DNA from: an uncultured bacterium
GTDB lineage: Bacteria; Abyssobacteria; SURF-5
Length of the DNA: 64,000 bases
Assembly: GCA_964453435.1 (NCBI GenBank)
Contig: CAYVQZ010000011.1
Span: 9,235 to 73,234, forward strand
Reading direction: 5' to 3'
Part shown: positions 5,556-45,436 of the stretch, piece after piece
Position numbering within the stretch: the first letter of the stretch is position 1
How the letters are laid out: the number at the start of each line of letters is the position of its first letter
Translations under genes and position numbers: made by a program
The notes under the pieces: generated by a model
What the model saw: only the letters and a program-made list of their open reading frames with translations
Told to the model about the DNA's origin: nothing
Database searches by the model: none

Positions 5556-5906
5556 ATCTGGCCCCACGATTTCCCGGCGGCCATTCAACCAACCCGCCAG
5601 CTCCGGGAGACCCGTGGGCAGAAAACCCGCTTCGCCAATCGTGAGACGGGCTGAGGAATCCGTCCCGCGATTGCCCGGCGAAGGGGACTGTGAGACTGTC
5701 CGATAATTCGATGTCCTGCGCTTCGGGGACAGTCCCTATTCTATCCCGCGAATGCGCTGGACTTCGCTCCGCTCAACGAAGGACGGGGGGATTCCGTAAA
5801 TAGTGACAGTCCCCTGCGCTCTGTTTTCGCGGACTTTCATAATTCTCGGACAGATTTCACTGTCCCCGAGGCAAACAAATTGCGTCATGAATCGTGGGAC
5901 ACACTC
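5556..5906. repeat. MITE-like mosaic intergenic repeat, copy A (long form)
   Basis: Shares both termini and internal modules with copy C at 33375-33728: GATTGCCCGGCGAAGGGGNCTGTGAGNCTGTCCGATAATTC ... GGGACAGTCCC ... CCCGAGGCAAACAANTTGCGTCATNAATCGTGGGACACACTC. It contains the palindrome GGGACAGTCCC and lies in the divergent region between the MFS/spermidine-synthase gene and gap. Confidence 0.6.
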
Positions 5907-6096
5907 TGAGAGCCCCCTTTTTTGCCGGGTATGGTATGTCTCTTCGCCGGGATTAGGAGAGGGATTGCATGAACAAGAAGGGACGAATTGGTCATTTTCA
6001 CAGGTAATGGAACAGGTGACGAATTCGATGGCGAGCCGTGAGGAAAGGGGTGGGAGCGTAGCCGTTCATAAGGCGCTCGAATGACAAATATTCTGA

Positions 6097-6125
6097 TTGA
6101 CTTATTCGGAGGCATATGACATAAT
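6097..6125 (+). promoter_or_regulatory. Sigma-70-like promoter upstream of gap-pgk (TTGACT - 17 nt - CATAAT)
   Basis: Hexamers read directly at 6097-6102 and 6120-6125. An RBS AAAGGGGG lies just before the gap ATG. Confidence 0.4.
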
Positions 6126-6184
6126 AACTGGAATTTATATGGATGGAGAACAAATCGACTGAAGAGAAAAGGGGGTAAATTCGA

Positions 6185-7183
6185 ATGGCCATAAAGATTG
6201 GAATCAATGGGTTCGGGCGCATAGGTCGCATGGTCTATCGGGCGGCTCTCGAGCATCCCGAAATCGAAGTGCTCGCCGTGAATGATATCACCGATGCTAT
6301 CACATTAGCGCATCTTCTAAAATATGATTCAACACATCGCAGGTTTCCCGGAACGGTGTCAGTGAAGGACGACACGCTGCTTGTGGGCGAGTCTCGAGTG
6401 AAAGTGCTGTCGGAGCGAAACCCCGGAAAGCTTCCGTGGAAAGAGCTTGGGGCGGAGATAGTGGTGGAATCCACCGGTATTTTCCGCAAACGCGACGATT
6501 GCATGAAACACATCGAGGCTGGAGCAAAAAAAGTGCTTCTGACGGTTCCTCCCAAAGGCGATGTTGATGCGATGATTGTTCTTGGCGCGAACGATGACGC
6601 TTTGAAATCCGACCACAAGGTGATTTCAAACGCTTCCTGCACGACCAACTGCCTTGCCCCCATGGCGAAGGTTCTCCATGAGGCTTTTACGATCGAGTCT
6701 GGGCTCATGACCACGGTGCACGCATACACCGCCGATCAGCGATTGGTGGACGCGCCTCACAGCGATTTGAGGCGTGCTCGGTCGGCGGCGGTTTCCATAG
6801 TGCCGACGACTACCGGCGCAGCGAAGGCGGTTGGGAAAGTGATTCCGGAGCTGAACGGAAAGCTGGACGGGATGGCGATGCGCGTGCCCGTTCAGGACGG
6901 CTCGGTTACGGATTTTGTGGCGACCACGAAGAAAGAGGTGTCGGTTGACGCAATCAATCGTGTCATGAGCAAGGCGGCCGAAACGACGCACAAGGGTATC
7001 ATCGAGTATTGCGAGGACCCGATCGTCTCTGTGGACATAATCGGCAATCCGCATTCCTCTATTTTTGATTCGCAGCTTACCATGACGATGGGACCCAATA
7101 TGTTCAAGGTTGTTTCATGGTATGATAATGAATGGGGTTATTCGAAGCGGTGCGTCGATTTGGTTATAAAGATGGCCGGTTGA
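6185..7183 (+). CDS. gap: Glyceraldehyde-3-phosphate dehydrogenase, type I
   Basis: 332 aa. N-terminal [12 protein letters not shown]-binding motif, catalytic [10 protein letters not shown], and C-terminal WYDNEWGYS motif. Confidence 0.95.
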
Positions 7184-7229
7184 ATCGAAGGGGAGCCGCG
7201 AACATCGCTCCAGCGGGGAGCCCGTTGAG

Positions 7230-8414
7230 ATGAACAAACTTTCGTTAAAAGACGTTCAGGTGAAGGGGAAGCGGGTTTTCGTCAGGGTCGATTTTAATGT
7301 GCCGCTCGAGAACGGAAAAGTAACGGATGACCTGCGAATAACCGAAACGCTGCCGACAATCAAATACGTGTTGGAGCACAGCGGAAAGGCGATTCTCGGC
7401 TCTCATCTGGGCCGCCCGAAAGGCAAAGTGGTCGAAGACCTGCGGATGGACGCCGTGGCCGAACGGTTGAGCGCACTGTTGGGTAAACCTGTCCGCAAGC
7501 TCGACGATTGTGTAGGAGATGAGGTTGAGCGAGCCGTTGCCGAAATGAAGGCGGGCGACGTCGTTCTCCTCGAGAATCTCAGGTTCCACAAGGGGGAAGA
7601 AGCCAATAACGAACAATTTGCAGAGGCGCTGGCCAGACTTGCCGACATCTATGTGAATGATGCGTTTGGCGCCGCTCACCGGGCACACGCTTCGACCGAG
7701 GGAATTACGCGATTCGTGGAACCGGCGGTGGCCGGCTTCCTGATGGCGAAGGAGATCGACTACTTCTCAAGGGTGTTGGAGAACCCTGAGCGGCCATTCA
7801 TTGCAATTCTCGGGGGCGCAAAGGTATCGGACAAGATAGGAGCGATAGAGAATCTGTTGGAAAGAGCCGACAAATTCCTGGTTGGCGGGGGGATGGCTTA
7901 CACGTTTCTCAAGGCGTTGGGACACGAGATAGGCAAATCGCTGTTTGAACATGATAAGACTGGCCTCGCCCGCGACACGATGAAAAAGGCAAAAGCGCTG
8001 AACCGGCCCTTTTTTCTTCCCGTCGACAATGTGATCGCCGACAACTTCAGCGAGGATGCGAATGTCAAGGTGACGGGTGGGGCCGACATTGACGAGGGTT
8101 GGATGGGACTGGACATTGGGCCGAAGACAATGGAACTGTTTCAGGAAGAGCTCGAAGGGGCGAAGACAGTTATATGGAACGGCCCACTCGGAGCGTTTGA
8201 GATGACGCCGTTCTCGAACGGGACGAAGGCCGTCGCTCGGTGCGTGGCCGAGTCGGACGCTGTTTCGGTTATCGGAGGGGGAGACACCGCCGCCGCCGTG
8301 ACTGAATTCGGTTTTTCTGATAAAATGTCTCATATATCAACCGGCGGCGGCGCATCGCTCGAAATGCTGGAAGGGAAGGAACTCCCGGGCGTCGCGGCGC
8401 TGACCGATCGATAG
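7230..8414 (+). CDS. pgk: Phosphoglycerate kinase
   Basis: 394 aa. RVDFNVP N-terminal motif. Sits immediately downstream of gap, the classical gap-pgk pair. Confidence 0.95.
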   Translation: MNKLSLKDVQVKGKRVFVRVDFNVPLENGKVTDDLRITETLPTIKYVLEHSGKAILGSHLGRPKGKVVEDLRMDAVAERLSALLGKPVRKLDDCVGDEVERAVAEMKAGDVVLLENLRFHKGEEANNEQFAEALARLADIYVNDAFGAAHRAHASTEGITRFVEPAVAGFLMAKEIDYFSRVLENPERPFIAILGGAKVSDKIGAIENLLERADKFLVGGGMAYTFLKALGHEIGKSLFEHDKTGLARDTMKKAKALNRPFFLPVDNVIADNFSEDANVKVTGGADIDEGWMGLDIGPKTMELFQEELEGAKTVIWNGPLGAFEMTPFSNGTKAVARCVAESDAVSVIGGGDTAAAVTEFGFSDKMSHISTGGGASLEMLEGKELPGVAALTDR

Positions 8415-8516
8415 CCACTGACGCAAAAGGTTCGGAACCATTCGCTAAGCTTGACGAAGACTCCGACGTCTGACTTGGGAATGGGGATCACAGCACCAAA
8501 GGAGGAAACGCCGGCA

Positions 8517-8786
8517 GTGAACATTACGAAAGAAGACAAAGAGAAGATTATACGCAAATATCAAACACACGAAGGCGACACGGGTTCACCCGAGGTTCAA
8601 ATCGCCCTTCTTACCGAACGAATCAACGGACTCACCACTCACTTCGAGGCCCACAAGAAAGACCATCATTCACGCCGTGGTCTCTTGAAGATGGTCGGGC
8701 GACGGCGCAGCCTCTTGAATTATTTGAGACGAAAAGACATCGAACGGTATCGAAAAGTTATAACCGACCTCGGTCTGCGCAAGTAG
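8517..8786 (+). CDS. rpsO: 30S ribosomal protein S15
   Basis: The 89-aa core [89 protein letters not shown] is S15-like. A likely GTG start at 8517 is preceded by AAGGAGG. The ORF track extends it to 8451, which is probably too long. Confidence 0.9.
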
Positions 8787-8907
8787 GATGCCGCTTCGCG
8801 CCATGCTGACGCCCGCCGCTGCAAGAAGTCCGCTCAGAGGGGAAAACCATGTTCCCGGGCGATAGATAATACATGTATGCGAAAACAACGAATGGAGAAA
8901 TCGGGTA

Positions 8908-11001
8908 ATGATTGAGAGAATTGAATTACAGTTAGGGCGAAACAAGCTCATAATGGAAACCGGTCACATGGCCAAACAGGCCGACGGAGCGGCGTGTGTC
9001 TTCTATGGCGATACGGGAGTGCTGGTGACCGTCGTGGCGTCGTCGGATGTCCGCGAGGGGATCGACTTCCTCCCGCTCACCGTCGATTATCGGGAGAAAA
9101 CCTACGCCGCCGGAAAAATTCCGGGAGGCTTCTTCAAGCGAGAGGGGAGACCGTCCGAAAAGGAGACGCTGACATCGAGGCTCATCGACCGGCCGTTGCG
9201 TCCCCTGTTTCCCGACGGACACATCAATGAGACACAAATAATGGCCACGGTCATATCGCACGACCAGGAAAACGACCCGGACGTTTTGTCAATCGTGGGG
9301 GCGTCGGCGGCGCTTGCGCTCTCCCGAATTCCCTTCACGAACTTTGTGGGCGCGGTGCGAGTCGGAAGGCTCAACGACGAATTCGTGGTGAATCCCACCT
9401 ACAAGGACTTGGAGGAGAGCGATATCGATCTCGTGGTTGCCGGGACAAAGAGAGCGATTACCATGGTTGAGGGCGGCGGCAGGGAAATCGACGAGGAGAC
9501 GATGATCGCTGCTCTTGAATTCGGCCACCAGATGCTGAAGGACACCATCTCGGCCCAAGAGGAGTTGGTGGCTCGCTGCGGCAAATTTAAGCTGCCCGCC
9601 CCCACAGTCAGCCTTGACGCCGACATCGTGTCGAAGGTTGAATCGTTCGCGAGCGCGAAATTGAGGGAGGTTCTTGTCATTGCGGATAAACTGAAGCGTC
9701 AGGAGACGACGCACTCCGTGTTCGAGGAAACCCTGCAGCAATTTCCCGATGCGGCCGACCCGGAACTCGCGCAAATCAAGGCCGCTTTCAGAAATCTCGA
9801 AAAGAAACTGCTCCGCAACATGATATTGAAAGAGCAGTTGCGGGTTGACGGCAGAGGACCGAAAGCCATACGGCCCATAAGCTGCGAGATTGGGCTGTTG
9901 CCCCGCGTCCATGGTTCGTCTCTGTTCACGAGGGGTGAAACGCAGGCTCTTGTCGCCACAACGCTCGGGACATCGACCGATGAGCAGATTATGGACTCGC
10001 TGTTCGGCGAATACAAAAAGACATTCATGCTTCACTACAATTTCCCGCCGTTCAGCGTGGGCGAGGTCAAGCCGATCCGAGGTCCCGGCCGCCGGGAAAT
10101 CGGGCACGGCGCTCTTGCCGAGCGTTCTCTCGACAGCATGATGCCCTCGTTCGAGGAGTTTCCTTACACGTTGCGGGTCGTTTCCGACATCCTCGAATCG
10201 AACGGGTCATCTTCCATGGCCACGGTCTGCGGCGCCACCCTGTCACTCATGGACGCAGGAGTTCCCATCAAGGAGCCCATCGCCGGTATCGCAATGGGAC
10301 TCGTTCAAGAAGGCGAACAGACAGTTATCCTGAGCGATATTTTGGGGATCGAGGACCATCTCGGCGACATGGACTTCAAAGTCGCCGGCAGCAAGAACGG
10401 CATCACCGGTTTCCAGCTCGACACAAAGACCGATGGACTGAACCTGCATGTTCTCGCTCAAGCTCTTGAGCAGGCGCGAGAGGGACGCCTCTTCATCCTG
10501 GAGAAGATGCTGGAAGCTATCGCGCGGCCGCGCGCGGAAATATCCAAACACGCTCCGAGAATCATTCACATGCGGATCGATCCCGAAAAGATACGGGATG
10601 TCATCGGTCCGGGCGGCCGCATTATTCGAGGCATTGTCAGCGACACCGGCGCCGAAATTAACGTTGAGGACGACGGCAGAGTGCTTATCGCTGCGGTCAA
10701 CCCGGAGGCCGGAGAAAAAGCATACAATATGATTCGGTCCCTGGTCGAAGAAGTCGAAGTGGGCAAAATCTATACCGGCAAGGTGAAACGAGTCCTGAAG
10801 TTCGGCGCCTTCGTGGAAATATTGCCCGGCAAGGAAGGGCTTGTTCACATATCCGAATTGAGCGACCACCGCGTGCGCCGGGTGGAAGATGTTCTCAACG
10901 AGGGTGACACGGTAACGGTGAAGTGCATCGAGATCGACCGGCAAAACCGTATCAACTTGAGCAAGCGGGCCGCAGACAAAGAGCTGGGCGTGGGAGCTTG
11001 A
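8908..11001 (+). CDS. pnp: Polynucleotide phosphorylase (polyribonucleotide nucleotidyltransferase)
   Basis: 697 aa with two RNase PH domains, a KH domain and a C-terminal S1 domain (GKVKRVLKFGAFVEILPGKEGLVHISEL). Follows rpsO, the canonical rpsO-pnp arrangement. Confidence 0.95.
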   Translation: MIERIELQLGRNKLIMETGHMAKQADGAACVFYGDTGVLVTVVASSDVREGIDFLPLTVDYREKTYAAGKIPGGFFKREGRPSEKETLTSRLIDRPLRPLFPDGHINETQIMATVISHDQENDPDVLSIVGASAALALSRIPFTNFVGAVRVGRLNDEFVVNPTYKDLEESDIDLVVAGTKRAITMVEGGGREIDEETMIAALEFGHQMLKDTISAQEELVARCGKFKLPAPTVSLDADIVSKVESFASAKLREVLVIADKLKRQETTHSVFEETLQQFPDAADPELAQIKAAFRNLEKKLLRNMILKEQLRVDGRGPKAIRPISCEIGLLPRVHGSSLFTRGETQALVATTLGTSTDEQIMDSLFGEYKKTFMLHYNFPPFSVGEVKPIRGPGRREIGHGALAERSLDSMMPSFEEFPYTLRVVSDILESNGSSSMATVCGATLSLMDAGVPIKEPIAGIAMGLVQEGEQTVILSDILGIEDHLGDMDFKVAGSKNGITGFQLDTKTDGLNLHVLAQALEQAREGRLFILEKMLEAIARPRAEISKHAPRIIHMRIDPEKIRDVIGPGGRIIRGIVSDTGAEINVEDDGRVLIAAVNPEAGEKAYNMIRSLVEEVEVGKIYTGKVKRVLKFGAFVEILPGKEGLVHISELSDHRVRRVEDVLNEGDTVTVKCIEIDRQNRINLSKRAADKELGVGA

Positions 11002-11004
11002 GGC

Positions 11005-12243
11005 TTGCTGAGGCGATATCATCTGTCGAACGGAATCCGGGTAGTAACAGAGCTCATTCCTCATTTTCGGTCTGCGACCATCGGAGTCTGGATTCGAGCG
11101 GGCTCTGTCAACGAAACCCGTGATATCAATGGCGTTTCTCATCTCCTCGAGCATCTGTTCTTTAAGGGGACGAAAACACGGACCGCCCGCCAGATTATGG
11201 AGTCCTTCGAGGGCCTCGGAGGCTCCGCCAACGCTTTTACCAGTCGTGAGTATACCTGCCTGTACAGCAGGATACTCGATACCCATGTCGACACTGCAGT
11301 CGAGATATTGGCCGATATCCTTCTCAACTCGGTGTTCCGCGACCTTGAGAAGGAAAAAGCCGTTGTTGCCGAGGAAATTCAGTCCTATATCGACACTCCG
11401 GAAGACCACGTGCTGGATTTGCTCTACGCAAACTTGTGGCGAGGGCATCCGCTCGGCTTCTCGATTACCGGCTCGAAGCGCGCGCTCGCGAGGCTCAACC
11501 GCAAGGTTGTCCGCAATTACTATCGCACGTGGTATGTCCCTTCGAACATACTTGTCGCAATCGCGGGCAACTTCGATAGTCCATACCTCCGTAAAGTTTG
11601 CGAGAAACATTTTGGAGTTCTCGATGGCTCCGATAACAGACACGCTTACAACCCCCCGAAAGTCCGCGCCGCAAAAAGGATATACAATCGAAAGATCGGT
11701 CAGGTTCACTTCAGCCTCGCATTGCCCGGTGTCTCCGCCCACGACGAAAGACGCTTTGCCTTCAATCTCCTCGCCAACATCCTCGGCGGTTCCTCTATCT
11801 CGCGCCTCTATCAGCGAGTGCGCGAAGACGAGGGACTGGCTTATCAGATTAACGCGTTCGTAAGTTCGTTGGAAAATGCCGGTTTGATAGGGGTTTACGC
11901 CGCGCTCAATCCACGGCAGACCCAGAGAGCGATGGACATTGTTCTGGAGGAGATGGCGCTGCTCAAGAAAAAAGAGGTTCCGGATGACGAACTCGGGGGC
12001 GCGAAGGAACAGCTCAAAGGCAATATCGTGTTGTCGCTGGAGAGCACATCCGGGCGGATGATGAGGTTGGCCCGGTCGGTACTCTCACTGAACCGGGTGG
12101 AAAGTCTCCAGACCATCATGAACAAGATCGACAAAGTCACGGCGGAACAGATCAGGGAACTCGCCTGTCAATTATTTCGCGACGAAGCGCTCAACGTCGT
12201 GGCGCTCGGCCCGCTCAAAGAATTGGAGATTCGAAGTATCTGA
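11005..12243 (+). CDS. M16 family zinc metallopeptidase (pitrilysin/insulinase-like)
   Basis: 412 aa. Inverted zincin motif HLLEH (GVSHLLEHLFFKGT) near the N-terminus. Peptidase_M16 plus M16_C architecture. Tightly follows pnp. Confidence 0.8.
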   Translation: MLRRYHLSNGIRVVTELIPHFRSATIGVWIRAGSVNETRDINGVSHLLEHLFFKGTKTRTARQIMESFEGLGGSANAFTSREYTCLYSRILDTHVDTAVEILADILLNSVFRDLEKEKAVVAEEIQSYIDTPEDHVLDLLYANLWRGHPLGFSITGSKRALARLNRKVVRNYYRTWYVPSNILVAIAGNFDSPYLRKVCEKHFGVLDGSDNRHAYNPPKVRAAKRIYNRKIGQVHFSLALPGVSAHDERRFAFNLLANILGGSSISRLYQRVREDEGLAYQINAFVSSLENAGLIGVYAALNPRQTQRAMDIVLEEMALLKKKEVPDDELGGAKEQLKGNIVLSLESTSGRMMRLARSVLSLNRVESLQTIMNKIDKVTAEQIRELACQLFRDEALNVVALGPLKELEIRSI

Positions 12244-12339
12244 AATTCCAGCGGGTTATGTGACGGCTTTGCACTCTGCAGCGCAACCGAACCTTTACGC
12301 ATGTTCGAATTGGCTGGTATAAATTTGAATCAGGCCTAA

Positions 12340-12662
12340 TTCGCCGAATGCGGTCAGTCCCGGGCGACGTCTCCGGTTGCTGATTTGCCATGCGGACAGG
12401 CTCACAGTGACTGTGCCCGACAATTTGCTGAGGTGTGCTTCGGGGGCAGTCCCGATTCTGCGGCGCTTCGTGCCCGTAAATCCGGGACAGTCCCTTGCGC
12501 TTGGCAATCGAGGGACGGATTCGCAGCCCGCCAATCTATCCCGCCTTTGTCAGGCGAGGCGTGTGACCCGCTCAGCGATGAAATAAGGGGGATTCCGTAA
12601 TTGGGTACAGCCCCCTCCGCTCGCGTTTTGGCAGAAAATTCGATTGTCGGGCAGGCTCACAG
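12340..12662. repeat. MITE-like mosaic intergenic repeat, copy B
   Basis: Shares modules with the other copies: GGGGGCAGTCCCGATTCT, TTCGTGCCCGTAAATCCGGGACAGTCCC, GCCAATCTATCCCGC, GGGGGATTCCGTAATTGGGTACAGCCCCC. Bounded by inverted ends (...GGCTCACAGTGACTGTGCCCGACAATTT / AATTCGATTGTCGGGCAGGCTCACAG). The small ORFs at 12377-12600 inside it are not credible. Confidence 0.6.
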
Positions 12663-13307: not shown

Positions 13308-13333
13308 TTGCACAAAATGGCATGTAGATTAGA

Positions 13334-25613: not shown

Positions 25614-26570
25614 ATGAGAGAGGGCAAGGACTTCAAGCCGGCTGATCTCAATCGAGTTCGTACGCACAGCATACATGGCAGAAAAACGAAGGTATCCGTG
25701 CGTCAATTTGCCTCGGCGCCTCCGCCTCATGCGGGATTTGCGGAATTTATCGGGTCACTTCCCGACGTGTTGGCGGCCTCGAACCTGAAACGGGTCATCC
25801 GCGATATTGTCTCCGCAAAGAAAAAAGGCAGGCCGATAGTTGCCGCGCTCGGAGGCCATGTGGTGAAATGCGGGCTTGGCCCGGTGCTCGTCGATTTGAT
25901 GGAGAGAGGCTTCATCACGGCGGTGGCGATGCATGGCGCCACTGCGATACATGATTACGAAATCTCGCTCGTGGGACGAACCTCCGAAGATGTCGCAACC
26001 GTTTTGAAAGATGGCTCATTCGGGATGGCGCGCGAAACTCCGGCAGCGTTCAAACGCGCTGCCGAGGAAGCCGCACACAGAGAGCTCGGACTCGGGAAGT
26101 CCCTCGGAAAGTTGATCCTCTCCGAAGAAACCCCTTGCCGTGAGCACAGTGTTTTGGCCGCGGCAGCCAGGCTCGGGCTGCCCGCCGCCGTGCTGCTGGC
26201 TCTCGGGACCGATACCATCTGTATGCATCCCGACTTCTGTCCCGATACGCTGGCACGCGCCAGTCATCTCGATTTCCGCATCCTCGTGTCCGTTGTGTCC
26301 CGGTTGGAGGGCGGCGTCTGGATGAATATCGGGTCTGCCGTTGTTTTACCCGAAGTCTTCCTCAAGGCACTCAGCCTCGCACGCAATCTTGGCTCAAAAG
26401 TCGAGAAATTCACAGCAGTCAATTTAGACATGCGCCAGCACTATCGCCCGAACACGAACGTCGTTGGTCGGTCTACCAGGCAAGGGTATTCCATTACCGG
26501 CCATCACGAGATCATGCTTCCGCTTTTGCGCATGGGGATCATTTCGGCGGCCGAGAGGAAAACCAAATGA
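25614..26570 (+). CDS. Deoxyhypusine synthase-like (DHS fold) protein, divergent paralog
   Basis: 318 aa. The segment KKKGRPIVAALGGHVVKCGLGPVLVDLMERGFITAVAMHGATAIHDYE aligns to the DHS NAD-binding core, cf. CTIIVTLSGAMTIAKMGKVLCEMIDEGMAHIIVSTGALMAHG in the second paralog at 33820-34890. Only 22 bp downstream of the acyltransferase, and it overlaps hldE by 4 nt. Confidence 0.5.
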   Translation: MREGKDFKPADLNRVRTHSIHGRKTKVSVRQFASAPPPHAGFAEFIGSLPDVLAASNLKRVIRDIVSAKKKGRPIVAALGGHVVKCGLGPVLVDLMERGFITAVAMHGATAIHDYEISLVGRTSEDVATVLKDGSFGMARETPAAFKRAAEEAAHRELGLGKSLGKLILSEETPCREHSVLAAAARLGLPAAVLLALGTDTICMHPDFCPDTLARASHLDFRILVSVVSRLEGGVWMNIGSAVVLPEVFLKALSLARNLGSKVEKFTAVNLDMRQHYRPNTNVVGRSTRQGYSITGHHEIMLPLLRMGIISAAERKTK

Positions 26571-31491: not shown

Positions 31492-32910
<1,419 letters not shown>

Positions 32911-33205: not shown

Positions 33206-33374
33206 TTATCTCCTTGTCATCGTTTCGCGCGACGGAATATCAAACCGTATGGCTGTCTGCGAAAACGATGAACTTCTGTCATGGTCTTTATGCTGCGTGT
33301 TTCGTAATGCCATGGCGGCGATGTGATGCGCAGCGCAGATGAAATCGAAACCGTCTCGCCGTCTACCCCGACAG

Positions 33375-33728
33375 AATCTGTCCCATGATTGCCCGGCGAA
33401 GGGGGCTGTGAGTCTGTCCGATAATTCCACTGGGTGGTCTCCTGCGCAGGGGACAGTCCCGATTCTATCCCGCGGATTGCGCGGGACTTCGTGCCCGTAA
33501 ATCTGGAACAGTGAAACTGTCTCGCGGCTGCGCATTTTGCCGAACAACAAGCTTTGGGGGCTGTACCCAATTACGGAATCCCCTGTCTTTTGCGCTGAGC
33601 GGAGCGAAGTCCCGCGCGTTCGCGGGATAGATTGGCGGACTGCCCCCAAAGCAGGGTATCCCGAATCGTGAGACACACTCACTGTTCCCGAGGCAAACAA
33701 CTTGCGTCATAAATCGTGGGACACACTC
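33375..33728. repeat. MITE-like mosaic intergenic repeat, copy C (long form)
   Basis: Co-linear with copy A at both termini. Also contains inverted copies of modules seen in copy B (GGGGGCTGTACCCAATTACGGAATCCCC, GCGGGATAGATTGGC). Terminal inverted repeat: left ...GAGTCTGTCCGATAATT, right AATCGTGGGACACACTC. Confidence 0.6.
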
Positions 33729-37085: not shown

Positions 37086-39485
37086 ATGGACTCGAAGCAA
37101 ATTCGCTCATCATTCGAACAAAACGCCGCGCGTGTCCGGGAATTTTTTGGGAGGCTGCGATTAAAAGGGGAGCGGCCCCGCAAGAAGAAATGGCGCCGAT
37201 GGCTGGGGTTCGCGGCGGCGTCCTGTTTCCTTGCAGCCGTGAGCCTCCTCCTCTACTGCTGGAGCCTTTCGGTTCAGATTGATAAACGGTTCTCGGGCCG
37301 ACGTTGGAGCATTCCGTCGAAGGTCTACTCCGACACGACTATCCTTTTCCCCGGCCAGGAAATAAATCCGTCCCTTTTTCATGAAAAGCTCCGACGCCTC
37401 GGCTATCGGGAAGTGTCACACCCGCCGGCGCGGAAGGGAGAGATGCAGGTCTCGGCCTCCGAAATCCGGCTGTGCCTGAACGACCTGAACGTTCCGGGGC
37501 GCGAAAGAGAGGGTTTTCCCGCCACGCTGCGTATGTGGAGGGGGCGTATCGAATCGATCATTCGCGCGGACACAAGTGAGTCGGTCCCGATTCTGGAACT
37601 CGAACCGGAAGAGATAACGCTGTTTTTCGGGTCGGAACGAGAACGGCGCCGCTTGGTCTCCATCGACCAGGTTCCGCAGCATCTCGTGTACGCCGTTATG
37701 GCGGCGGAAGACAGGCGTTTTTATGAGCACCACGGCCTCGACCCCCGTGGAATCGCCCGCGCGTTTCTGACCAATATGCGTCACGGCGAAATTCGACAGG
37801 GCGGCTCGACGATTACCCAGCAACTCGCGAAATGCTACTTCCTCACCCCGAAGAGAACCATTTCCCGCAAGTTCACGGAACTCATAATGTCACTTCTCAT
37901 CGAAACCAAGTATGAGAAAGACGAGATAATGGAAATCTATCTGAATGAGATTTACCTCGGCCAAAAGGGGTCGGTCTCAATCAATGGAGTCGCCGAGGCT
38001 TCCCAATTTTACTTTGCGAAACCGGTTGCGGAACTGTCTCTCGCCGAGGCTGCAACGATTGCCGCGCTCATTAAGGCGCCCAATGCCTATTCGCCTTACA
38101 TCAACGAAGAGAATTGCAGAAAGCGGCGCAATGCCGTTCTCCATTCGATGTACAGAAACGGATGGATATCGGAGGAGGAATTCCATTCCACGTCGCTCGT
38201 GCCTGTCACCACTTCCGGCTACGCGGTCTACGAAAAGAAAGCGCCGTACTTCATCGATTATCTTTCCGAGCAGCTCAACGCCTTGTATTCGCCCGAGGCC
38301 CTGTCCAGCCTCGGACTCTCCATTCACACTACATTGGACACGCAGGTTCAAATGGCGGCGGAGGACGCGCTGCAAAAAGTGCTCGTAAACCTGGAGGAAT
38401 CGAACCCGGCTCTCAAACGAGCCGAGCCGCAGAAAAGTCTGCAGGGCGCCGTGATTGTCATGCAGCCGAAGACAGGCTATATCCTTGCGCTGGTTGGGGG
38501 TCGTGATTACGGAGCAAGCCAGTTCAACCGCATTACCAGGGCTCGGCGGCAGCCGGGCAGCGCGTTCAAGCCTTTCGTTTACCTCAGCGCTCTCGACCGG
38601 TTCACCCCCGCTTCCCTGGTCTCGAACCAGCCGAAAACTTATGTGGTCAATAAAACGGTTTGGGAACCGCAAAACTTCACGCCCGTGCCGGAGCCTGAGG
38701 TGATCCTGAGCACCGCCCTTGCGCAATCAATTAATGTGGCCACCGTCGACTTGGCGATGAAGGTTGGGCTGGAACATGTCGTAAGGACCGCTTCCGACTT
38801 CGGATTCTCAACTCCAATGAAACCATATCCGTCACTGTCGCTCGGGGCCTTCGAAGTGATTCCCCTCGAGTTGGCCCGCGCCTATTGCGCCTTTGCCGCG
38901 GATGGCGTGCTGCCGTACCCTCTTTCCCTCAAAGAGGTGGTGGACGAGAGCGGCGATGTGCTCGAGAGAAGACACATGACGATCGACCGAGTGATTTCTC
39001 CTCAGAAAGCTTATATAATGGTTTCCATGCTGGAGGACGTGGTTAACCGCGGAACGGCGCGACCGCTTCGGCGCAGCGGCATTTCCTTTCCCGTCGCCGG
39101 GAAAACGGGGACAACCAATGATTTCAGAGACGCATGGTTCGTCGGATTCACCCCCGATATCCTTGCCCTCGTCTGGATAGGTTTCGATGATGAAGAATCG
39201 ATTTATGCCACTGGGTCCACTGCTGCTCTCCCCGTGTGGGCGGAGATCATGAAGTCGATTCCGCAGCATGTCTCAGGCTCATGGTTCAGGATGCCGTCGG
39301 GGCTCGTCAGGAAAGCCATTTGTCCTCAGACAGGGCTGCTCGCAAACCGCTATGCGTGCCCGGACCCAACCGAAGAAGTCTTCCTGAAAGGAGGCGAGCC
39401 CGAACATCCCTGTCCCGTCCACACACGTATCAATCGGCTGCGGCAAATCATCGATGAAGGCAGGAATGCTATCAATAACCTTTAG
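37086..39485 (+). CDS. mrcA: Penicillin-binding protein 1A family (bifunctional transglycosylase/transpeptidase)
   Basis: GT51 transglycosylase motifs (EDRRFYEHHGLD, GGSTITQQLAK). Transpeptidase SxxK (SAFKPF), SxN and KTG (AGKTGTTN). N-terminal transmembrane helix WLGFAAASCFLAAVSLLLY. The track ORF begins at 36933. Confidence 0.85.
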   Translation: MDSKQIRSSFEQNAARVREFFGRLRLKGERPRKKKWRRWLGFAAASCFLAAVSLLLYCWSLSVQIDKRFSGRRWSIPSKVYSDTTILFPGQEINPSLFHEKLRRLGYREVSHPPARKGEMQVSASEIRLCLNDLNVPGREREGFPATLRMWRGRIESIIRADTSESVPILELEPEEITLFFGSERERRRLVSIDQVPQHLVYAVMAAEDRRFYEHHGLDPRGIARAFLTNMRHGEIRQGGSTITQQLAKCYFLTPKRTISRKFTELIMSLLIETKYEKDEIMEIYLNEIYLGQKGSVSINGVAEASQFYFAKPVAELSLAEAATIAALIKAPNAYSPYINEENCRKRRNAVLHSMYRNGWISEEEFHSTSLVPVTTSGYAVYEKKAPYFIDYLSEQLNALYSPEALSSLGLSIHTTLDTQVQMAAEDALQKVLVNLEESNPALKRAEPQKSLQGAVIVMQPKTGYILALVGGRDYGASQFNRITRARRQPGSAFKPFVYLSALDRFTPASLVSNQPKTYVVNKTVWEPQNFTPVPEPEVILSTALAQSINVATVDLAMKVGLEHVVRTASDFGFSTPMKPYPSLSLGAFEVIPLELARAYCAFAADGVLPYPLSLKEVVDESGDVLERRHMTIDRVISPQKAYIMVSMLEDVVNRGTARPLRRSGISFPVAGKTGTTNDFRDAWFVGFTPDILALVWIGFDDEESIYATGSTAALPVWAEIMKSIPQHVSGSWFRMPSGLVRKAICPQTGLLANRYACPDPTEEVFLKGGEPEHPCPVHTRINRLRQIIDEGRNAINNL

Positions 39486-39894
39486 ACTTGTGTTCCTAAT
39501 AATAATGGGTCTCCTGGTAACCGTTCCGGCAGGTTGTTCGGTTTCGTATAGGCCGCCGCAACCGGATCGCCCCGGCAGCGTAAATGAACGCCGCCCGCCG
39601 GAGGACCCGCGAGCAACGGCTTCCCTTCAGTTGACACGGCAGGGCCGGGAACTTCTCGAAAGCGGGCGGCCCGACGACGCAATCAGCATGCTCGAACGCG
39701 CCGTTGGCATCGGCCCGACTAACGGCCAGAATTACTATTACCTGGCTGAGGCATGGATTCAAAAAGGCGACCCCGCACAGGCGGAGGAGTTCAATCGGCT
39801 GGCGGCTATCTATCTGGAGGCCGACCCCGAATGGATGGCACGGGTCGAGGAACAACGGCTCCGAATCGAAGAGGTTCGTCCGCCCGAATTTTGA
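39454..39894 (+). CDS. TPR-repeat lipoprotein (hypothetical)
   Basis: Signal peptide with lipobox VPAGC. TPR-like helices (DAISMLERAVGIGPTNGQNYYYLAEAWIQKGDPAQAEEF). The start may be the internal Met at ~39505. Confidence 0.5.
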   Translation: MKAGMLSITFRLVFLIIMGLLVTVPAGCSVSYRPPQPDRPGSVNERRPPEDPRATASLQLTRQGRELLESGRPDDAISMLERAVGIGPTNGQNYYYLAEAWIQKGDPAQAEEFNRLAAIYLEADPEWMARVEEQRLRIEEVRPPEF

Positions 39895-39910
39895 GCAGGA
39901 GACCAAACCG

Positions 39911-39940
39911 AGGCGCAGCCACCCTGCGCCGCTTTTTTCT
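39911..39940 (+). terminator. Intrinsic terminator (GGCGCAG-CCACC-CTGCGCC followed by TTTTTT)
   Basis: Perfect 7-bp GC stem plus a T-run directly downstream of the TPR lipoprotein gene. Confidence 0.5.
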
Positions 39941-40106
39941 GTGCGTAGCGAAGACTCTCGATTATTTTCCCGGCGAAGACAAAAATCCCCCATTGTGATA
40001 ACATCCTGTCGTGGTGTCTGAACGGTAAAGAACCCCGTGATAATAACGAGCCGAGCCGGTGTTAAAGCATATGGTTCAACAAGTTCTTTTCTGAAGGAGC
40101 CGCTCA

Positions 40107-41309
40107 ATGAAACGATCAGAATCCGGTCAATCCGCGGACGTCAGAATCGTCCAAATCGAACTGACACCCCTGTTTGTTCCGTTTCAGGAAAACGTTAAAC
40201 AGGCCATGCAGTCAGCCGGCGGCGCCGGACTCGGAATGGCCATTGCTGCGGAAGAGCGATGGCTCGGGGGCGATTTCGTCATCTGCAGGCTGATTGCTGA
40301 CGACGGCAGTGTCGGCCTCGGCGAGGCGTTTGTCTGGCTTCCGGAAACAGGGGCGCATCCGGACCAGATCATTTCCATCATCGGACATTCGCTTGCCGAC
40401 TACGTGCTGGGAGAGAGCCCGTTTAACGTCGAGCGTATCCGCCACCGGATGGATGCCAACGTCGCCCGGAACGAGGTCGCAAAGGGAATCCTCGATATGG
40501 CGTGTTACGACGTGATGGGCAGAATTTCTGGCCGTCCCGCATGCGATTTTATGGGTGGAAAGACCGTCGACCGGATTCCGCTGGCGGCTCTGATTCCTCT
40601 CATGGAGGTCGATTCGATGGTCGGCCTCGCCGAAACGTTCGCCAACGCCGGTTATCGTACCATTCGCGTCAAACTCGGCCTGAGCATCTCTCAGGATGTT
40701 CGGACCATTGAATGCATGCGCGAGACGATGGGCGACGAGATTCGCATCCGGGTCGATTACAATCAAGCGTACACGCCTGCAGAGGCGGTTCGCGCAATCA
40801 ACATGCTCGAGCCGTTCGGGATCGACTACGCCGAACAACCTGTCGGCGCGACTGATTACGTCGGGATGGCGCACGTTCAAAGCAGGGTGAACGTCCCGCT
40901 CATGGCGCACGAAGGCTGTTTTTCGCTGGCGGACATAGTTCATCTTGCCGAACTCAGAGCGATCGGTGTCGTCGGCATCAACTCCGAGCGCCCCGGCGGC
41001 GTGACAAACGCGCTCCGCGCGATCTCGCTTGCGGAACAGCGGGGGATGGGGGTCGCGTTGCACAACCAGCCGCTCGGCATCGCATCGGCCATGCACATTC
41101 ACCTCGCCGCTGCCAGGTATCACTCACTCGGCCACGCCACGGAACTGTTCGGCCACTTCATGCTCGAAGACGACCTCATCGTCGCCCCGATCGACTATGC
41201 GGAAGGATTCGCGGTTGTTCCCCGCGGTCCCGGCTGGGGTGTCGCCCTTGACGAAGCTGCGCTTGCCAAATACGCCAGGGGCAAAACCGTAAAGCTGAAG
41301 GCCAAATGA
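40107..41309 (+). CDS. Enolase-superfamily enzyme, mandelate racemase/muconate lactonizing enzyme family
   Basis: 400 aa. MR_MLE N-terminal capping domain plus TIM-barrel with the conserved metal-ligand pattern (KVKLG..., DYNQAY, ...EQP). Confidence 0.8.
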   Translation: MKRSESGQSADVRIVQIELTPLFVPFQENVKQAMQSAGGAGLGMAIAAEERWLGGDFVICRLIADDGSVGLGEAFVWLPETGAHPDQIISIIGHSLADYVLGESPFNVERIRHRMDANVARNEVAKGILDMACYDVMGRISGRPACDFMGGKTVDRIPLAALIPLMEVDSMVGLAETFANAGYRTIRVKLGLSISQDVRTIECMRETMGDEIRIRVDYNQAYTPAEAVRAINMLEPFGIDYAEQPVGATDYVGMAHVQSRVNVPLMAHEGCFSLADIVHLAELRAIGVVGINSERPGGVTNALRAISLAEQRGMGVALHNQPLGIASAMHIHLAAARYHSLGHATELFGHFMLEDDLIVAPIDYAEGFAVVPRGPGWGVALDEAALAKYARGKTVKLKAK

Positions 41310-41400
41310 TTTGAGGCCGCAGAATCACCAGGCGCTCAAGAATTCGGAAACACAATAGTAGTGTCCCGGGAACATGATGGAAATACAATGAACGTATCCG

Positions 41401-42897
41401 CTAGCCGGCGCATTCTGCATTCACTTCCGCCCATTCGCTCTTGCCACCGTTTTTGTCGACAGCGCGCACACGGTAGGTATTCAGCCCTTGAGCCGCGTCG
41501 GCGTCCCGATATGTGAAGGGCTGTCGGGTTGTCTGCGGCCGGTGGAGCGCTTCACCGAGCATGCGTTCGCTGCTGTAGATTTCATAGTGGGAGAGCGGGG
41601 CCCTTCCGGCATAGCTTGTTTCCCAGGCAAGATAAACGGCGGGGGTTCCGCTGATGTGTTCCCGGTACCCGCTGTCCGGCATGGCCCTCAGCCCTTGCGG
41701 CGGCGTAAGCCCGAGCGACGGCCTCTGGAAGTAGTTCGTGCCAGTGCCGACTGCTTCGGCCGTCATCCGCTCGATCTCCCGCATCTCGTCGCCTGAGAGG
41801 GGCTCGCGCACCTGTGCCGCCTCGATATTCGCGGTGAGCTGGTCCTCTGCCGGATCGTCGGATGCGGCAATGTGGCCGATACCGATTATCACACAATCCA
41901 CACCGGGAACACTCAATGAATACCGAATCAGTGGAGCCGACGGAAGGTTCTTCGACCCGACACCCATATACACATCATGCGGCTCGTTCGAAAATGAGTT
42001 CGATTCTCGGCCATAGTACTTGGCGTCGGCAAACACCTTCATTCCGATAACTCCCATTCCCTTTGCCTTCGCCACGGGAATCACGTTGTGCTGGTGGTTG
42101 AAATAATGTCTGTCATTCGAGTTGATGGCCACGAGGAGCGTGTCGAAGATGCCCACGTCGTCCCTTTGGATCGCCTCCATCAGCGCGGGCGAGTTCCAGT
42201 GTCCGGTGATTCCGATATGCCGGACCAGCTTCTCTTCAGCCGGATTCACCCCCGTCCGATTCGTGCCGTCGCGGAGGTCCAGGAGGCCCGCCAGGGTTCC
42301 AATATGCTCGGCCCGCGGGTCCGGCTCAGGAAGCCCCTCAAAAATCGCGTCGATTTCCTCAATCGTATTGATGTTGTGTACTTGCACGAGGTCGAGATAA
42401 GCGTCCTCGGGATAGTTCCCCTTTCCATCGCCGAACATCTGCGACAATGAGCGCCTCACATCGTCCACCGCCGTCCTCACCCAACCTCCGTTCGAGGCGG
42501 GGTTCGGCCCAAGGTCACCATCGGCCGTGACCGCGCGGCGCATGTGGGTCTTCGTTGCCAGGAAAATTGTCTTTCGGAGTTTTCTGTCATAATCCGGTGT
42601 GTCCGGGACCAGGTGCAGCCGCCGAAAGGCCTTTCCATAGGTCAACTGGCTCGGGCCGTAAATGTTCGAGGTGTCGAAATACGATATACCCCGTTCTAAC
42701 GCTTTCAGAATTATCTGCGTTCCATCGGTTCCCGGTCTCGGCCACTGTATGGAAGCCTGTCCGCCGAGCCCGAAGGTGGTGACGGCACGCGCCGTTTTGC
42801 CGAGAGTTCTCGTCAACAGCTTGTTGTTCTTGCTTCCGGCCGCCGCTTTGACCTTGCCTGTTCTCCGGCCTTTCTCAATGGGACCTTCTGTCTTCAT
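41401..42897 (-). CDS. Aldo/keto reductase with C-terminal fibronectin-III-like extension
   Basis: AKR N-terminus LGKTARAVTTFGLGGQ, with an RBS before the ATG at 42895-42897. A ~100-aa beta-rich C-terminal tail (TYRVRAVDKNGGKSEWAEV) resembles an FN3 domain. Confidence 0.6.
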   Translation of the reverse strand: MKTEGPIEKGRRTGKVKAAAGSKNNKLLTRTLGKTARAVTTFGLGGQASIQWPRPGTDGTQIILKALERGISYFDTSNIYGPSQLTYGKAFRRLHLVPDTPDYDRKLRKTIFLATKTHMRRAVTADGDLGPNPASNGGWVRTAVDDVRRSLSQMFGDGKGNYPEDAYLDLVQVHNINTIEEIDAIFEGLPEPDPRAEHIGTLAGLLDLRDGTNRTGVNPAEEKLVRHIGITGHWNSPALMEAIQRDDVGIFDTLLVAINSNDRHYFNHQHNVIPVAKAKGMGVIGMKVFADAKYYGRESNSFSNEPHDVYMGVGSKNLPSAPLIRYSLSVPGVDCVIIGIGHIAASDDPAEDQLTANIEAAQVREPLSGDEMREIERMTAEAVGTGTNYFQRPSLGLTPPQGLRAMPDSGYREHISGTPAVYLAWETSYAGRAPLSHYEIYSSERMLGEALHRPQTTRQPFTYRDADAAQGLNTYRVRAVDKNGGKSEWAEVNAECAG

Positions 42898-42994
42898 TTT
42901 TTTCTCCCCCGTCCGGTTATACAGGATGAACAATAATCTCGGTTCATACTTCCTTATCAAAAGTATGCAGAAAATTCTTGGTCGGCGACACACC

Positions 42995-43160
42995 CGACAT
43001 GAAATTGCCTCGGGGTTTGGTAATTTGTGCTTCCGGGACAGCGAGTGTGTCCGATAATTTCATCTGGCGGCTCTCTGCTCGAGACAGTCCCGAATCTATC
43101 CCGCGAAGCGCGGGACTCCGCGTTCGTAATTCTTGGGACAGTACCCTTTACAGTGCGTAA
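42995..43160. repeat. MITE-like mosaic intergenic repeat, copy D (short form)
   Basis: GAGTGTGTCCGATAATT terminus, GAGACAGTCCCGAATCTATCCCGCGAAGCGCGGGAC, GGGACAGTACCC. Lies between the 3' end of the FHA-GAF kinase gene and the AKR gene start. Confidence 0.55.
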
Positions 43161-43399
43161 TATTATCTTTTCATGCAGGGACGTCATTCCGGATGGTGTC
43201 TCCGAAGGATCTCTTTTGTTGCGCGGCGTCACATCGGCGCCGGCCGCATGAAAGTCACAGCAAAAACGCGTGAATTTGCAAAATGAAAGTCTTCGTGGCG
43301 GTTCGCGTTGCGGGAAAAACGCATCCAGCATTTGGGCAGGCGCAGCAGGGTTGCCGAGGAAAGAAGAGAATCCCTCAGGAAAGCCGTGGGTGTCGCGGC

Positions 43400-45076
43400 T
43401 CAGGGCCGCAATGCGCCGGGAAGAGAAAAAGTGAAAGCGCTGCCTTTGCCGGGCTCGCTCTCAAGCCAAATGCTCCCGCCAAGCGCTTCGACGGCCATTT
43501 TACAGAATGCCAGACCGAGCCCGGTGTCTGTTTGATGGCCGAGCTCCCTGAGGCCCGCCTGGAAGAACTTTTCGAAAATCTTCTCATGGTATTCGCGCGG
43601 GATTCCCTCACCGAAGTCTTTTATCGAAAACAGCACACAGTTTTCTTCGCGAGCCGGAGCGATGCTGACGAGTATCTTGCCCTCGGCAAGGGAATGTTTG
43701 ATGGCGTTGGACAGAATGTTGGCGAGGATGCGTTCCAGCAAACTTTCGTCACAAAAGATTTCTCGGATAGCCGAATCGGCTGATATGCTCACGGTTTTGG
43801 CGTCGCGCTCGATGATTGCGGCATAGCGGTTGACCGTTCGTTGAACCAGGCCCGAAGGGTCAAGCCATTTCTTCTCGATTTGGATGGCGCCGCTTTCCAG
43901 GCGTGAGATTTCGAGCAAATTCGTGATCATCTCCGAAAGCTTGAACTGGTTGCGCTTGGCCAGTTGAAGGTAATCGCTTTGTTGGTCGGCCGGCGTATCC
44001 CTCGCGGTCATCAAGAGCATGTCGAGGGCCATCATGGTGTTCGTGACCGGGTTTTTCATATCGTGAACGACCATGTTAATGAGGTCTTCCTTCAACGCTT
44101 CCAATTCCATCAATTTCCGGTTCGTCTCGCGCATCTCCTCGTTGACGGCTTCGAGTATTCTCATTTGAAGGTTTTCTTCATAGAGCCGAATGTTGTCGAG
44201 CGCCACCCCGGTTGAACTGGCAACCATGGTGAGAAGCTGTAAATGCTCATCCGTGAAATGGCCCTTTGCGCCGCGATGGTCTATGTAGATAATGCCCAGC
44301 GTTTCCTTTCGCCCCCGGATCGGAACGCACATAGCCGACTTGATGTGTCCGTGGAGGATGCTGGCCTTTCCCGAAAAACGCCTGTCCGCGGGCGCATCCG
44401 AGGTTATAATTGACTCCTCCTGTTCGAGCACTCTCGTGGCGATAGTACGGCTGAACGCAACGTCGGAGGAATCCTCTGCGCTCTCACCCTCTCTCTTTTT
44501 TGCCGCTGCGAGCTGAAGCTCGCCGCTGGTGTCGAGAAGCATGATGTAGCCGCGGTCCGCATCGAAAATCGGGAAAATGATATCAAGAATTTTTTTGAAT
44601 AGTTCCTGCGTGTCGAAGATAGACGAGATAAGGCCGCTGATTTCGTATACTCGCTTGAGGTTTTCGTGCGCCTGCCTCAACTCTTCAATGCTTTTCGGGG
44701 AGGGGGTATCCGGTCTGAAGGAGCCGATTATCTCTTTTGAATCCCTGCGCTTTGTCGGAACCTTTTTCTCCTCGCCTTCTTCGGGAATTGGGGCGTCCAC
44801 GTAACGCAGGCGGGTCTTGCCCAAAACAATTTCATCGTTATCTCGAAGGCGGCGGCGCTCTATCTTGATTCCGTTGACATACGTGCCGTTGGCGGACTCC
44901 AAGTCTTCGATGAAATAAGCGTCGTTTACACGAGTGATAAGCGCGTGGCGGGAGGATACCGTGTCGTCCTTGATTCTAATGTCGTTCTGAGGGGACCGCC
45001 CGATCGTAAAACGGTCCGACCGAATGGGGAAAATGGCGCCTTTTTTCGTGCCGGCTTCAAGTTTGAAGAAAGGCAT
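43400..45076 (-). CDS. FHA domain - GAF domain - histidine kinase (orphan sensor kinase)
   Basis: 558 aa. N-terminal FHA (RFTIGRSPQNDIRIKDDTVSSRHALI...NGTYVNG). Central GAF domain. HisKA H-box HDMKNPV. HATPase_c with G-boxes (DFGEGIP, GLGLAFCK). No transmembrane segment and no adjacent response regulator. Confidence 0.8.
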   Translation of the reverse strand: MPFFKLEAGTKKGAIFPIRSDRFTIGRSPQNDIRIKDDTVSSRHALITRVNDAYFIEDLESANGTYVNGIKIERRRLRDNDEIVLGKTRLRYVDAPIPEEGEEKKVPTKRRDSKEIIGSFRPDTPSPKSIEELRQAHENLKRVYEISGLISSIFDTQELFKKILDIIFPIFDADRGYIMLLDTSGELQLAAAKKREGESAEDSSDVAFSRTIATRVLEQEESIITSDAPADRRFSGKASILHGHIKSAMCVPIRGRKETLGIIYIDHRGAKGHFTDEHLQLLTMVASSTGVALDNIRLYEENLQMRILEAVNEEMRETNRKLMELEALKEDLINMVVHDMKNPVTNTMMALDMLLMTARDTPADQQSDYLQLAKRNQFKLSEMITNLLEISRLESGAIQIEKKWLDPSGLVQRTVNRYAAIIERDAKTVSISADSAIREIFCDESLLERILANILSNAIKHSLAEGKILVSIAPAREENCVLFSIKDFGEGIPREYHEKIFEKFFQAGLRELGHQTDTGLGLAFCKMAVEALGGSIWLESEPGKGSAFTFSLPGALRP

Positions 45077-45199
45077 TTTCGCTATGCTGCGTGTTCGGAT
45101 TCCCGAAAAACATCGGCGATGTGTTTTCTTGAACTTTGCGCTCCCACCTCTTCAGGATACGGGGAAACGGACGAGCCGCCTCTGCGCCAGGCCTTCGAG

Positions 45200-45436
45200 C
45201 GCCCCAGAAATTTGCGTGCCCCGCGTGAAACGATGGAGGCGAGAACTGTCAGGCTGTCCGATAATTCATTAGCGCGCGCTTCGGGGACAGTCCCGATTCT
45301 ACGGCTCTTCGTGCCCGTAAATCTGGGACAGTCCCCTGCGCTCTCGTTTTCGGTCAAGCACATAATTGTCGGACAGATACAGAGTCCCTTTCGCCGGCGT
45401 TTCGGCAGAAAATGTGATTATCGGACAGTTTCGCTA
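45200..45436. repeat. MITE-like mosaic intergenic repeat, copy E
   Basis: Modules seen directly: GGCTGTCCGATAATTC, CGGGGACAGTCCCGATTCTACGG, TTCGTGCCCGTAAATCTGGGACAGTCCCCTGCGCTC, and inverted ends ATAATTGTCGGACAG / GATTATCGGACAG. Lies upstream of the kinase gene start. Confidence 0.55.

Follow-up and report, generated by a model that had tools for sequence, protein, structure and literature searches.

Five intergenic loci of an Abyssobacteria chromosome as probable piles of a small, hairpin-forming selfish DNA element

The window analyzed here is a 64,000-nt stretch of DNA from an uncultured bacterium of the Abyssobacteria (lineage SURF-5; contig CAYVQZ010000011.1, positions 9,235 to 73,234), in which five regions between genes, designated A to E, share blocks of repeated sequence. 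We propose that these five loci are probably piles of a small selfish DNA element, here termed the core, which is non-coding and forms a hairpin, and whose copies lie nested in one another and side by side. That the cores constitute a hairpin repeat family of the mobile type appears very likely, and their mobilization by an enzyme of the HUH/Y1 type is put forward tentatively. The initial annotation had described five long mosaic elements resembling MITEs (miniature inverted-repeat transposable elements); its view that the repeats form a dispersed family, non-coding and folding into hairpins, that bears the hallmarks of (past) mobility holds, as does its exclusion of a CRISPR array. The actual unit, in place of the five long elements of 170-350 nt, is a small core hairpin of 54-90 nt, of which the window holds seven.

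The aligned copies from other genomes (hereafter foreign copies, whose loci carry L-numbers) give the core the layout c-GGGGACAGTCCC-GATTCTAC-(variable stem-loop)-CGTAAATCT-GGGACAGTCCCC-t. It is 60 nt long in 51 of 94 copies, with an overall range of 50-102 nt, and its length is divisible by three in 76 of the 94; the loop spans 5 to >50 nt and often has another small palindrome inside. The two 11-nt GGGACAGTCCC units of the core are direct repeats on one strand that pair with each other, leaving a conserved A.A mismatch, while GATT/AATC, TAC/GTA, and GAC/GTC pairs extend the stem to ~21 bp with three single-base bulges. The resulting arms are ~24 nt each, and 96-98% of the stem cells are paired on two alignments. 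Covariation favors this stem: compensatory changes occur at up to 8 of the 21 stem pairs, values that 0 of 500 shuffles and no slid register approach. The innermost pair alternates between A-U, G-C, and C-G, and a change of pair 13 from G-C to U-A marks a TATT/AATA subfamily comprising window copy A and four metagenome contigs (L111-L114). The core is also polar, forward matches scoring ~85 bits versus ~33 bits in reverse, and in 73 of 79 copies its 3' unit has A at the center, where T would complete the pair. GGGACAGTCCC is not the perfect palindrome of the initial annotation; it consists of two 5-nt inverted arms flanking a central A that breaks the symmetry, and the plus strand of the window has A, never T, at 9 of 9 sites.

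The core is by no means restricted to the window. When the exact 18-mer GGGACAGTCCCGATTCTA was scanned against one genome per species, at least 93 stretches matched, and ~108 cores were found in 625 kb of the matched loci. Core-bearing records include a 3.6-Mb Thermodesulfovibrionales chromosome (OY970295.1) and contigs of 0.5-0.9 Mb in CAVOUE01. The record titles of these stretches name Nitrospirota/Thermodesulfovibrionales, Thermodesulfobacteriota/“Deltaproteobacteria,” Omnitrophota, Poribacteria, Desantisbacteria, Planctomycetia, Abyssobacteria, and Lithacetigenota; 15 further cores lie in nine viral contigs, and the TATT/AATA subfamily is present in one metagenome (L111-L114). The outer modules of the window copies are absent from all foreign loci, and the window-type composite (TGTCCGATAATT N8-20 GGGACAGTCCC) returned 0 matches in a metagenome scan, which thus yielded no additional copies of this lineage.

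The window itself is ordinary chromosome of 55% G+C, with genes for gapA, pgk, pnp, an M16 peptidase, a beta-eliminating lyase, deoxyhypusine synthase, an FHA-GAF histidine kinase, and glycogen synthase, between which the repeats are situated. All five regions are real, in that the modules quoted in the initial annotation are found in each of them, and repeat detection on the window recovered them as direct families D1-D7, D10, D11, and D16, with the inverted pairs I1-I4 and I9-I11 also covering them. Short-word blastn among the five regions aligned A with C over 120 nt at 82.5% and a further 50 nt at 94%, B with E over 65 nt at 92%, and B with C, inverted, over 28 nt at 100%. Allowing one mismatch at most, GGGACAGTCCC has 14 matches in the window, corresponding to nine distinct sites, each within the five regions; dinucleotide shuffles yield an expectation of 1.25 +/- 1.18, and 0 of 100 shuffles reached 14. 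The regions are indeed intergenic, all copies lying in untranslated regions between genes, yet mechanical open reading frames (ORFs) of 124-184 amino acids read through copies C (33206-33700, minus strand), D (42957-43331, minus), and E (44945-45499, plus), because the element is free of stop codons in two of three frames per strand. Gene callers may label such ORFs hypothetical proteins.

A covariance model built from foreign copies only (R1) found six cores in the window and nothing else credible; a seventh, B2, falls below threshold and was assigned by eye. The features described below are on the plus strand unless otherwise stated. Composite A (5637..5906) is a nested hairpin with outer arms at 5656-5711 and 5841-5906, the right arm having a AATCGTGGGACACACTC end, and it folds as a single long hairpin with a minimum free energy (MFE) of -116.9 versus -89.7 for shuffles (z -6.0). 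Its core (core A, 5725..5814; 37.0 bits, E 4.5e-07) is a 90-nt member of the TATT/AATA subfamily with an extra hairpin in the loop. Composite B (12393..12662) has two tandem cores between the outer arms CTGTGCCCGACAATT and ATTGTCGGGCAG. The first, B1 (12442..12495; 61.8 bits, E 2.4e-13), is 54 nt long and near-canonical; the second, B2 (12523..12615), is degenerate with an eroded 5' stem, and is the inverted homologue of core C2, its inverted matches to composite C comprising 12523-12544 at 95% and 12588-12615 at 100%.

Composite C (33374..33728) is a single large palindrome, each half of which holds a core, in opposite orientations; its fold has an MFE of -170.2 versus -125.6 for shuffles (z -8.9). 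Core C1 (33449..33512; R1 match at 33453-33512, 30.3 bits, E 2.3e-05) contains a TCCCGCG/CGCGGGA hairpin in the loop and has an eroded 3' stem, and core C2 (33556..33647, minus strand; 20.0 bits, E 0.0096) is degenerate. Copy D (43035..43146) consists of a left outer arm (GAGTGTGTCCGATAATT) and a core (core D, 43081-43146; 28.9 bits, E 5.2e-05), the right outer arm being absent. In composite E (45242..45436; fold z -4.9), the core lies between the inverted arms CTGTCCGATAATT (45254) and AATTGTCGGACAG (45364-45376), with a further arm at 45412-45432. This core (core E, 45283..45336; 75.8 bits, E 6.8e-17) is 54 nt long, and both its arms are identical to the consensus of other phyla. Two weak R1 matches elsewhere in the window, at 32510-32542 and 26204-26244, were judged on reading to be chance. 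Separately, 14 nt that match the 3' end of cores A and E exactly (GACAGTCCCCTGCG) occur at 47851-47877 in an ORF-covered region; this match may be chance or an eroded remnant.

The outer arms in the window, among them GGGGAC..TGTCCGATAATTC together with its inverse and GTCCCGCGATT.. together with AATCGTGGGAC, follow the core arm pattern (GGGAC plus AATC) in degenerate form. The “termini” of the initial annotation (GAGTGTGTCC...) belong to these outer-layer arms, which are specific to this lineage; Poribacteria and Abyssobacteria-type loci display the same design with other outer arms (CTAGTGTAGTGTCTC...). The mosaic order and orientation of the modules are best read as the outcome of nesting, newer copies having landed in the loops of older, now-degenerate ones, together with tandem and inverted neighbors, which would make the modules appear shuffled and in both orientations. 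In the metagenome Ga0299912, two loci (L113 and L114) have two cores directly in tandem, the first with a truncated 3' stem and the second a complete 60-nt copy, which suggests insertion beside or into existing copies in another lineage too. For the five window sites, repeat insertions in untranslated regions are the annotation that we regard as best, in preference to genes or regulatory RNAs.

Several observations bear on mobility. Independent short-read contigs of the same DNA, from two public runs, end at window positions 5793, 12480, 33638, and 45336, each within a core, which gives indirect support to the high copy number extrapolated in the initial annotation; identical cores also recur within single genomes. 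The nearest relatives of the window that were found are labeled Lindowbacteria, Hydrogenedentota, and Abyssubacteria, the kinase of the nearest being 68% identical, and in this nearest relative the spacer between glgA and the kinase is 86 nt, versus 500 nt with copy E in the window. Among the 120 best MqnC homologues, one loop contains a core in 21 and other inserts in 39 and is empty in 60. Two MqnC alleles with 92.9% identical DNA differ by the element, and excising exactly 60 nt from the filled one restores the frame (K-S-E-W-G-A); its flanks, ..CAGA and GTGG.., are not duplicated. More generally, no target-site duplication of 2-9 nt was detected at any boundary offset in 80 copies, the best case being 17 observed versus 11 expected (2 nt). 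The same 80 copies show flank preferences, with C at -1 in 53 (66%), T after the element in 65, and T at -3 in 46%. We also observed solo cGGGGAC(A/T)GTCCCCt sites without an interior (L067 6238, L023 3154, L026 2523, L046 3521, and L028 5524), which could be footprints of deletion between the 11-nt direct repeats or seeds of the element.

Many of the foreign copies are found inside protein-coding genes: 41 of the 70 with enough flank sit in frame within long ORFs, and 34 of these 41 are antisense to the gene. They occur in three reading frames, two of which predominate, giving the predicted insert peptides GDSPDSTTSLRFVRKSGTVP or (K/E)GTVPDLRTxxSEVVESGLSP; GTVPDLRTERSEVVESGLSP is likewise among the predicted insert peptides. 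The proteins that bear such inserts are true housekeeping proteins and include PurL, BioA, a CCA/poly(A) polymerase, a nitrogenase-family protein, an RND pump, MqnC, and CobL (twice), with inserts falling inside the ACR_tran, TP_methylase, and Oxidored_nitro domains; orthologues and paralogues lack the insert. In BioA, residues 83-135 are additional to the Bacillus subtilis structure 3DOD, where the insertion falls between residues 101 and 103. A moderate AlphaFold model of an insert-bearing MqnC (mean pLDDT 64) places the insert in coil with pLDDT <50 (residues 236-271), lending weak support to the idea that it forms a tolerated surface loop. A profile search with the doubled 21-aa insert peptide recovered 29 short spurious ORFs only, from which no count of host proteins was obtainable, and neither the core DNA words nor the encoded peptides had a match in the searchable literature, whose coverage is incomplete. 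In a further locus (L023 3187-6822, minus strand), a core forms the exact junction, within an ORF of 1212 aa, between an FAD oxidoreductase (FAD_binding_2 and Succ_DH_flav_C) and a PocR/AraC-type regulator; this ORF is either a true fusion created by the element, which has no stop codons there, or a read-through of two genes.

The mechanism that we favor for the origin of these copies is one in which the element would move or copy itself as a single-stranded hairpin. A trans-acting HUH/Y1-type enzyme, resembling the REP-associated tyrosine transposases (RAYTs) or the TnpA of the IS200/IS605 insertion sequences and encoded elsewhere in the genome, would recognize one strand, and insertion would proceed without target duplication. 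Copies would then persist where the harm is small, either between genes, as in the window, or at in-frame sites within tolerant surface loops, as in many relatives. We arrive at a single-strand HUH/Y1 mechanism because of the identical end hairpins on the same strand, the GTAG/GTAA-plus-palindrome arms, the lack of target duplication, and the orientation bias, with 54 of 70 copies on the C-rich strand (p = 6e-06), a bias that is suggestive of such a mechanism. Specifically, the left arm reads GTAG-AATC-GGGACTGTCCCC on the bottom strand and the right arm GTAA-ATCT-GGGACAGTCCCC on the top strand.

This arrangement recalls repetitive extragenic palindromes (REPs), which, along with bacterial interspersed mosaic elements (BIMEs), include REPINs, i.e., REP doublets that occur as hairpins and are mobilized by RAYT Y1 transposases (Bertels & Rainey 2011, PMC3116915). 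In both cases, short GC-rich units form inverted doublets folding into one long hairpin, mosaic clusters are present in both orientations, and there is neither target duplication nor a transposase inside; the core arm likewise reads as a tetranucleotide (GTAG/GTAA), a 4-nt spacer, and a small palindrome, with one arm having GTAA, not GTAG. The initial annotation had thus set aside REP sequences too quickly. The core differs from REPINs in that its palindromic units are at the outer ends of the doublet and no flanking RAYT was found. The ends of IS200/IS605 elements and of their gene-less derivatives (palindrome-associated transposable elements, PATEs) share with the core identical small hairpins on the same strand at both ends, the lack of target duplication, and strand bias. 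Unlike in those elements, conservation of the core stops at the foot of the hairpin, with no guide or cleavage sequences 10-20 nt outside and no strong 4-5-nt target motif, and neither TnpA nor TnpB was found nearby.

A number of points weigh against the reading of the loci as a widely spread, HUH/Y1-mobilized selfish element. REPIN arms are conserved within one genus and those of the core across many phyla, and known REPINs are extragenic whereas most core relatives are intragenic. The cross-phylum spread itself is read from taxon labels of binned metagenome genomes; among the matches listed, the single archaeal one (L014) is a 5-kb contig binned as Methanobacteriota that may be mis-binned. 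GC skew tracks the coding strand in short loci (rho 0.73-0.81), and the orientation bias is consequently not assignable to replication. The near-empty MqnC allele has GCAGAGGCA in place of the predicted GAG and so falls short of a clean empty site. All-against-all clustering of 1514 ORFs from 95 loci produced no recurrent neighbor gene, with no family in more than four loci, and no ORF bounded by the element exists among 99 copies with 8-kb flanks, each complete 5' arm having its 3' arm within 130 nt. In tblastn searches of the loci with RayT and IS200 TnpA queries, no TnpA or TnpB was found, and the sole RAYT-like remnant (L069 6901-7191) has a REP of a different, classical type on its flanks (GTAGGGTGCGT...ACGCACC).

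This remnant deserves description in its own right. It belongs to contig JACQYJ010000109.1, which is represented by both L069 (6880-7440) and L004 (150-420), where a truncated RAYT-like gene retaining the motif LPDHLHCIW lies among toxin-antitoxin genes; the REPs flanking it are GTAGGGTGCGT..ACGCACC and GTAGGGTGGGC..GCCCACC. As these REPs differ from the core, a separate REP/RAYT system must coexist with the core element in that genome.

Another feature of the foreign loci is the frequent presence of tandem heptamers next to the core. These abut the 3' end of the core in 12 of 80 copies and the 5' end in 1 of 80, versus 0.8% of random 60-nt windows; in another lineage (L111-L114), 4 of 4 copies have them on the 5' side. 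The arrays, located in 3' flanks at L025, L091, L061, L019, L093, L010, L082, and L014, in 5' flanks at L111-L114, and also at L105 11760-11815, belong to several types, namely, TYCTGAC, CTTGACC, TTCCGCA, CTGAACT, CTGCCTA, and CCTTCGY. Yet another heptamer, (GGTTCAC)n, is common in the “empty” MqnC loops, where it is in frame and encodes GSRFTVHGSRFY. The loci also contain a second small palindromic family, CCCCCC(T)TT..AAAGGGGGG, translated as PPxPPFxKGGxGG. Several in-frame copies of it occur in one PurL (L063, ORF 3962-7999, minus strand), others are nested in core loops (L006, L010, L022, L060, L063, and L093), and it is present in some MqnC loops as well (PPHPPLAKGGRRGG).

We considered several alternatives to the proposed selfish element with a trans-acting single-strand enzyme. 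The one closest to the initial annotation is a classical MITE, i.e., an insertion sequence reduced by deletion that keeps its terminal inverted repeats and is mobilized by a target-duplicating DDE transposase. The ~24-nt inverted arms, the small size, the non-coding, dispersed, and nested nature of the copies, and the inverted CTGTCCGAYAATT with which the outer layers of the window copies end would all fit such an origin. Nevertheless, we consider it very unlikely: there is no flank duplication of 2-9 nt in the 80 relatives, nor in the filled and near-empty pair of MqnC orthologues; ~740 kb of flanking DNA yielded no autonomous partner, i.e., no transposase gene with the same ends on either side; and the end units are direct rather than inverted repeats, with the central A in both. 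Alternatively, the hairpins could be a functional signal kept by the host, such as a structured non-coding RNA, an mRNA-stabilizing or terminator hairpin of the kind proposed for REP and ERIC sequences, or a site for a conserved protein such as a nucleoid protein or recombinase, which spread as it is useful. The extreme conservation of the arms and internal loops across phyla against a variable loop, the covarying stem pairs, and the location of all window copies in untranslated regions between genes are in keeping with this. The core also bears a general resemblance to integron attC sites, which are recognized as folded single strands: both are imperfect hairpins in which two paired boxes are accompanied by a central mismatch, single extrahelical bases, and a variable tip, and recognition of the core would likewise be strand-specific. 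It nonetheless lacks the attC R-box GTTRRRY, and it is found neither in cassette arrays nor beside an integrase, but scattered in housekeeping genes. Presence varies among close orthologues, and a regulatory RNA or a dimeric-regulator operator, both raised in the initial annotation, would not be expected where most relatives are, within ORFs in three frames and mostly antisense. Nor does the core match any Rfam family: at the gathering threshold there were 0 matches in the window, and the sole match in 15 loci was a partial tRNA outside the element, while at E up to 10 the window and canonical loci gave chance-level microRNA and lncRNA matches only. A terminator and promoter scan around copies D and E stayed at background, with no T-run after the stem. 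A signal maintained for the host hence appears improbable.

The remaining alternatives dispense with a dedicated transposase. Small dispersed repeats (SDRs) are cyanobacterial hairpins of 21-27 nt, reportedly described by Elhai and coworkers in 2008, and are said to accompany tandem heptamers (short tandemly repeated repetitive sequences, STRR) in heterocystous cyanobacteria. Like SDRs, the cores are tiny hairpins with compensatory changes, lie beside or inside heptamer arrays, and are nested in their own copies and in larger mini-elements; they differ in being twice as long, in having 11-nt direct repeats at the ends, and in belonging to other phyla. The core could then be an ultra-small element of the SDR type, coupled to heptamers and moved by an undescribed route, be it host-enzyme, RNA-mediated, or polymerase-templated. 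The heptamers at the core boundaries, their presence in “empty” alleles of the core-accepting MqnC loop, the self-insertions of the window, the second palindromic family nested in core loops, and the failure to find a transposase all accord with it. On the other side, a mobilizer missing from 8-kb flanks is weak evidence, heptamers are beside only about one-fifth of the copies and none of those in the window, and SDRs are reputedly confined to cyanobacteria; such an element seems to us an improbable explanation. A bolder version holds that the core represents an undescribed class of 54-60-nt mobile DNA and the general bacterial counterpart of SDRs, which crosses phyla, possibly via viruses, and resides in frame in essential genes with heptamers, with no target duplication or linked transposase, by way of a host-enzyme or a polymerase- or RNA-templated route. 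This, too, strikes us as rather unlikely.

Returning to the proposed selfish element, its residence within genes has a parallel in the Rickettsia palindromic elements (RPEs; Ogata et al. 2000, as reviewed by Delihas 2011, PMC3184786), which are ~105-146 nt long, occur in frame in functional protein genes, and are restricted to Rickettsia. Both are palindromic, add a peptide to functional genes when in frame, and are also intergenic. The core is shorter, with its 54-60 nt adding an insert of 20 amino acids, and it belongs to free-living anaerobe lineages of many phyla; the likeness drawn here is one of description. The core family fails at least one defining feature each of REPINs, RPEs, and SDRs; it behaves like all three and not like a classical MITE.

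With respect to the window, the long GC-rich hairpins fall in the 5' or 3' untranslated regions of genes such as gapA and those for the histidine kinase and the aldo-keto reductase, and any effect on these neighbors would be incidental. In practical terms, the core interrupts metagenome assemblies, gives rise to spurious ORFs and gene fusions, and can mislead binning. If the proposed reading is correct, a 60-base parasite with near-invariant arms would be common to Nitrospirota, Thermodesulfobacteriota, Omnitrophota, Poribacteria, Planctomycetota, several candidate phyla, and some viruses. The ~20 residues that it adds to PurL, BioA, CobL, and MqnC would, in that case, be a source of variation in protein loops, and the core would offer a tractable system for understanding how very small repeats, such as REPs, RPEs, and SDRs, move.

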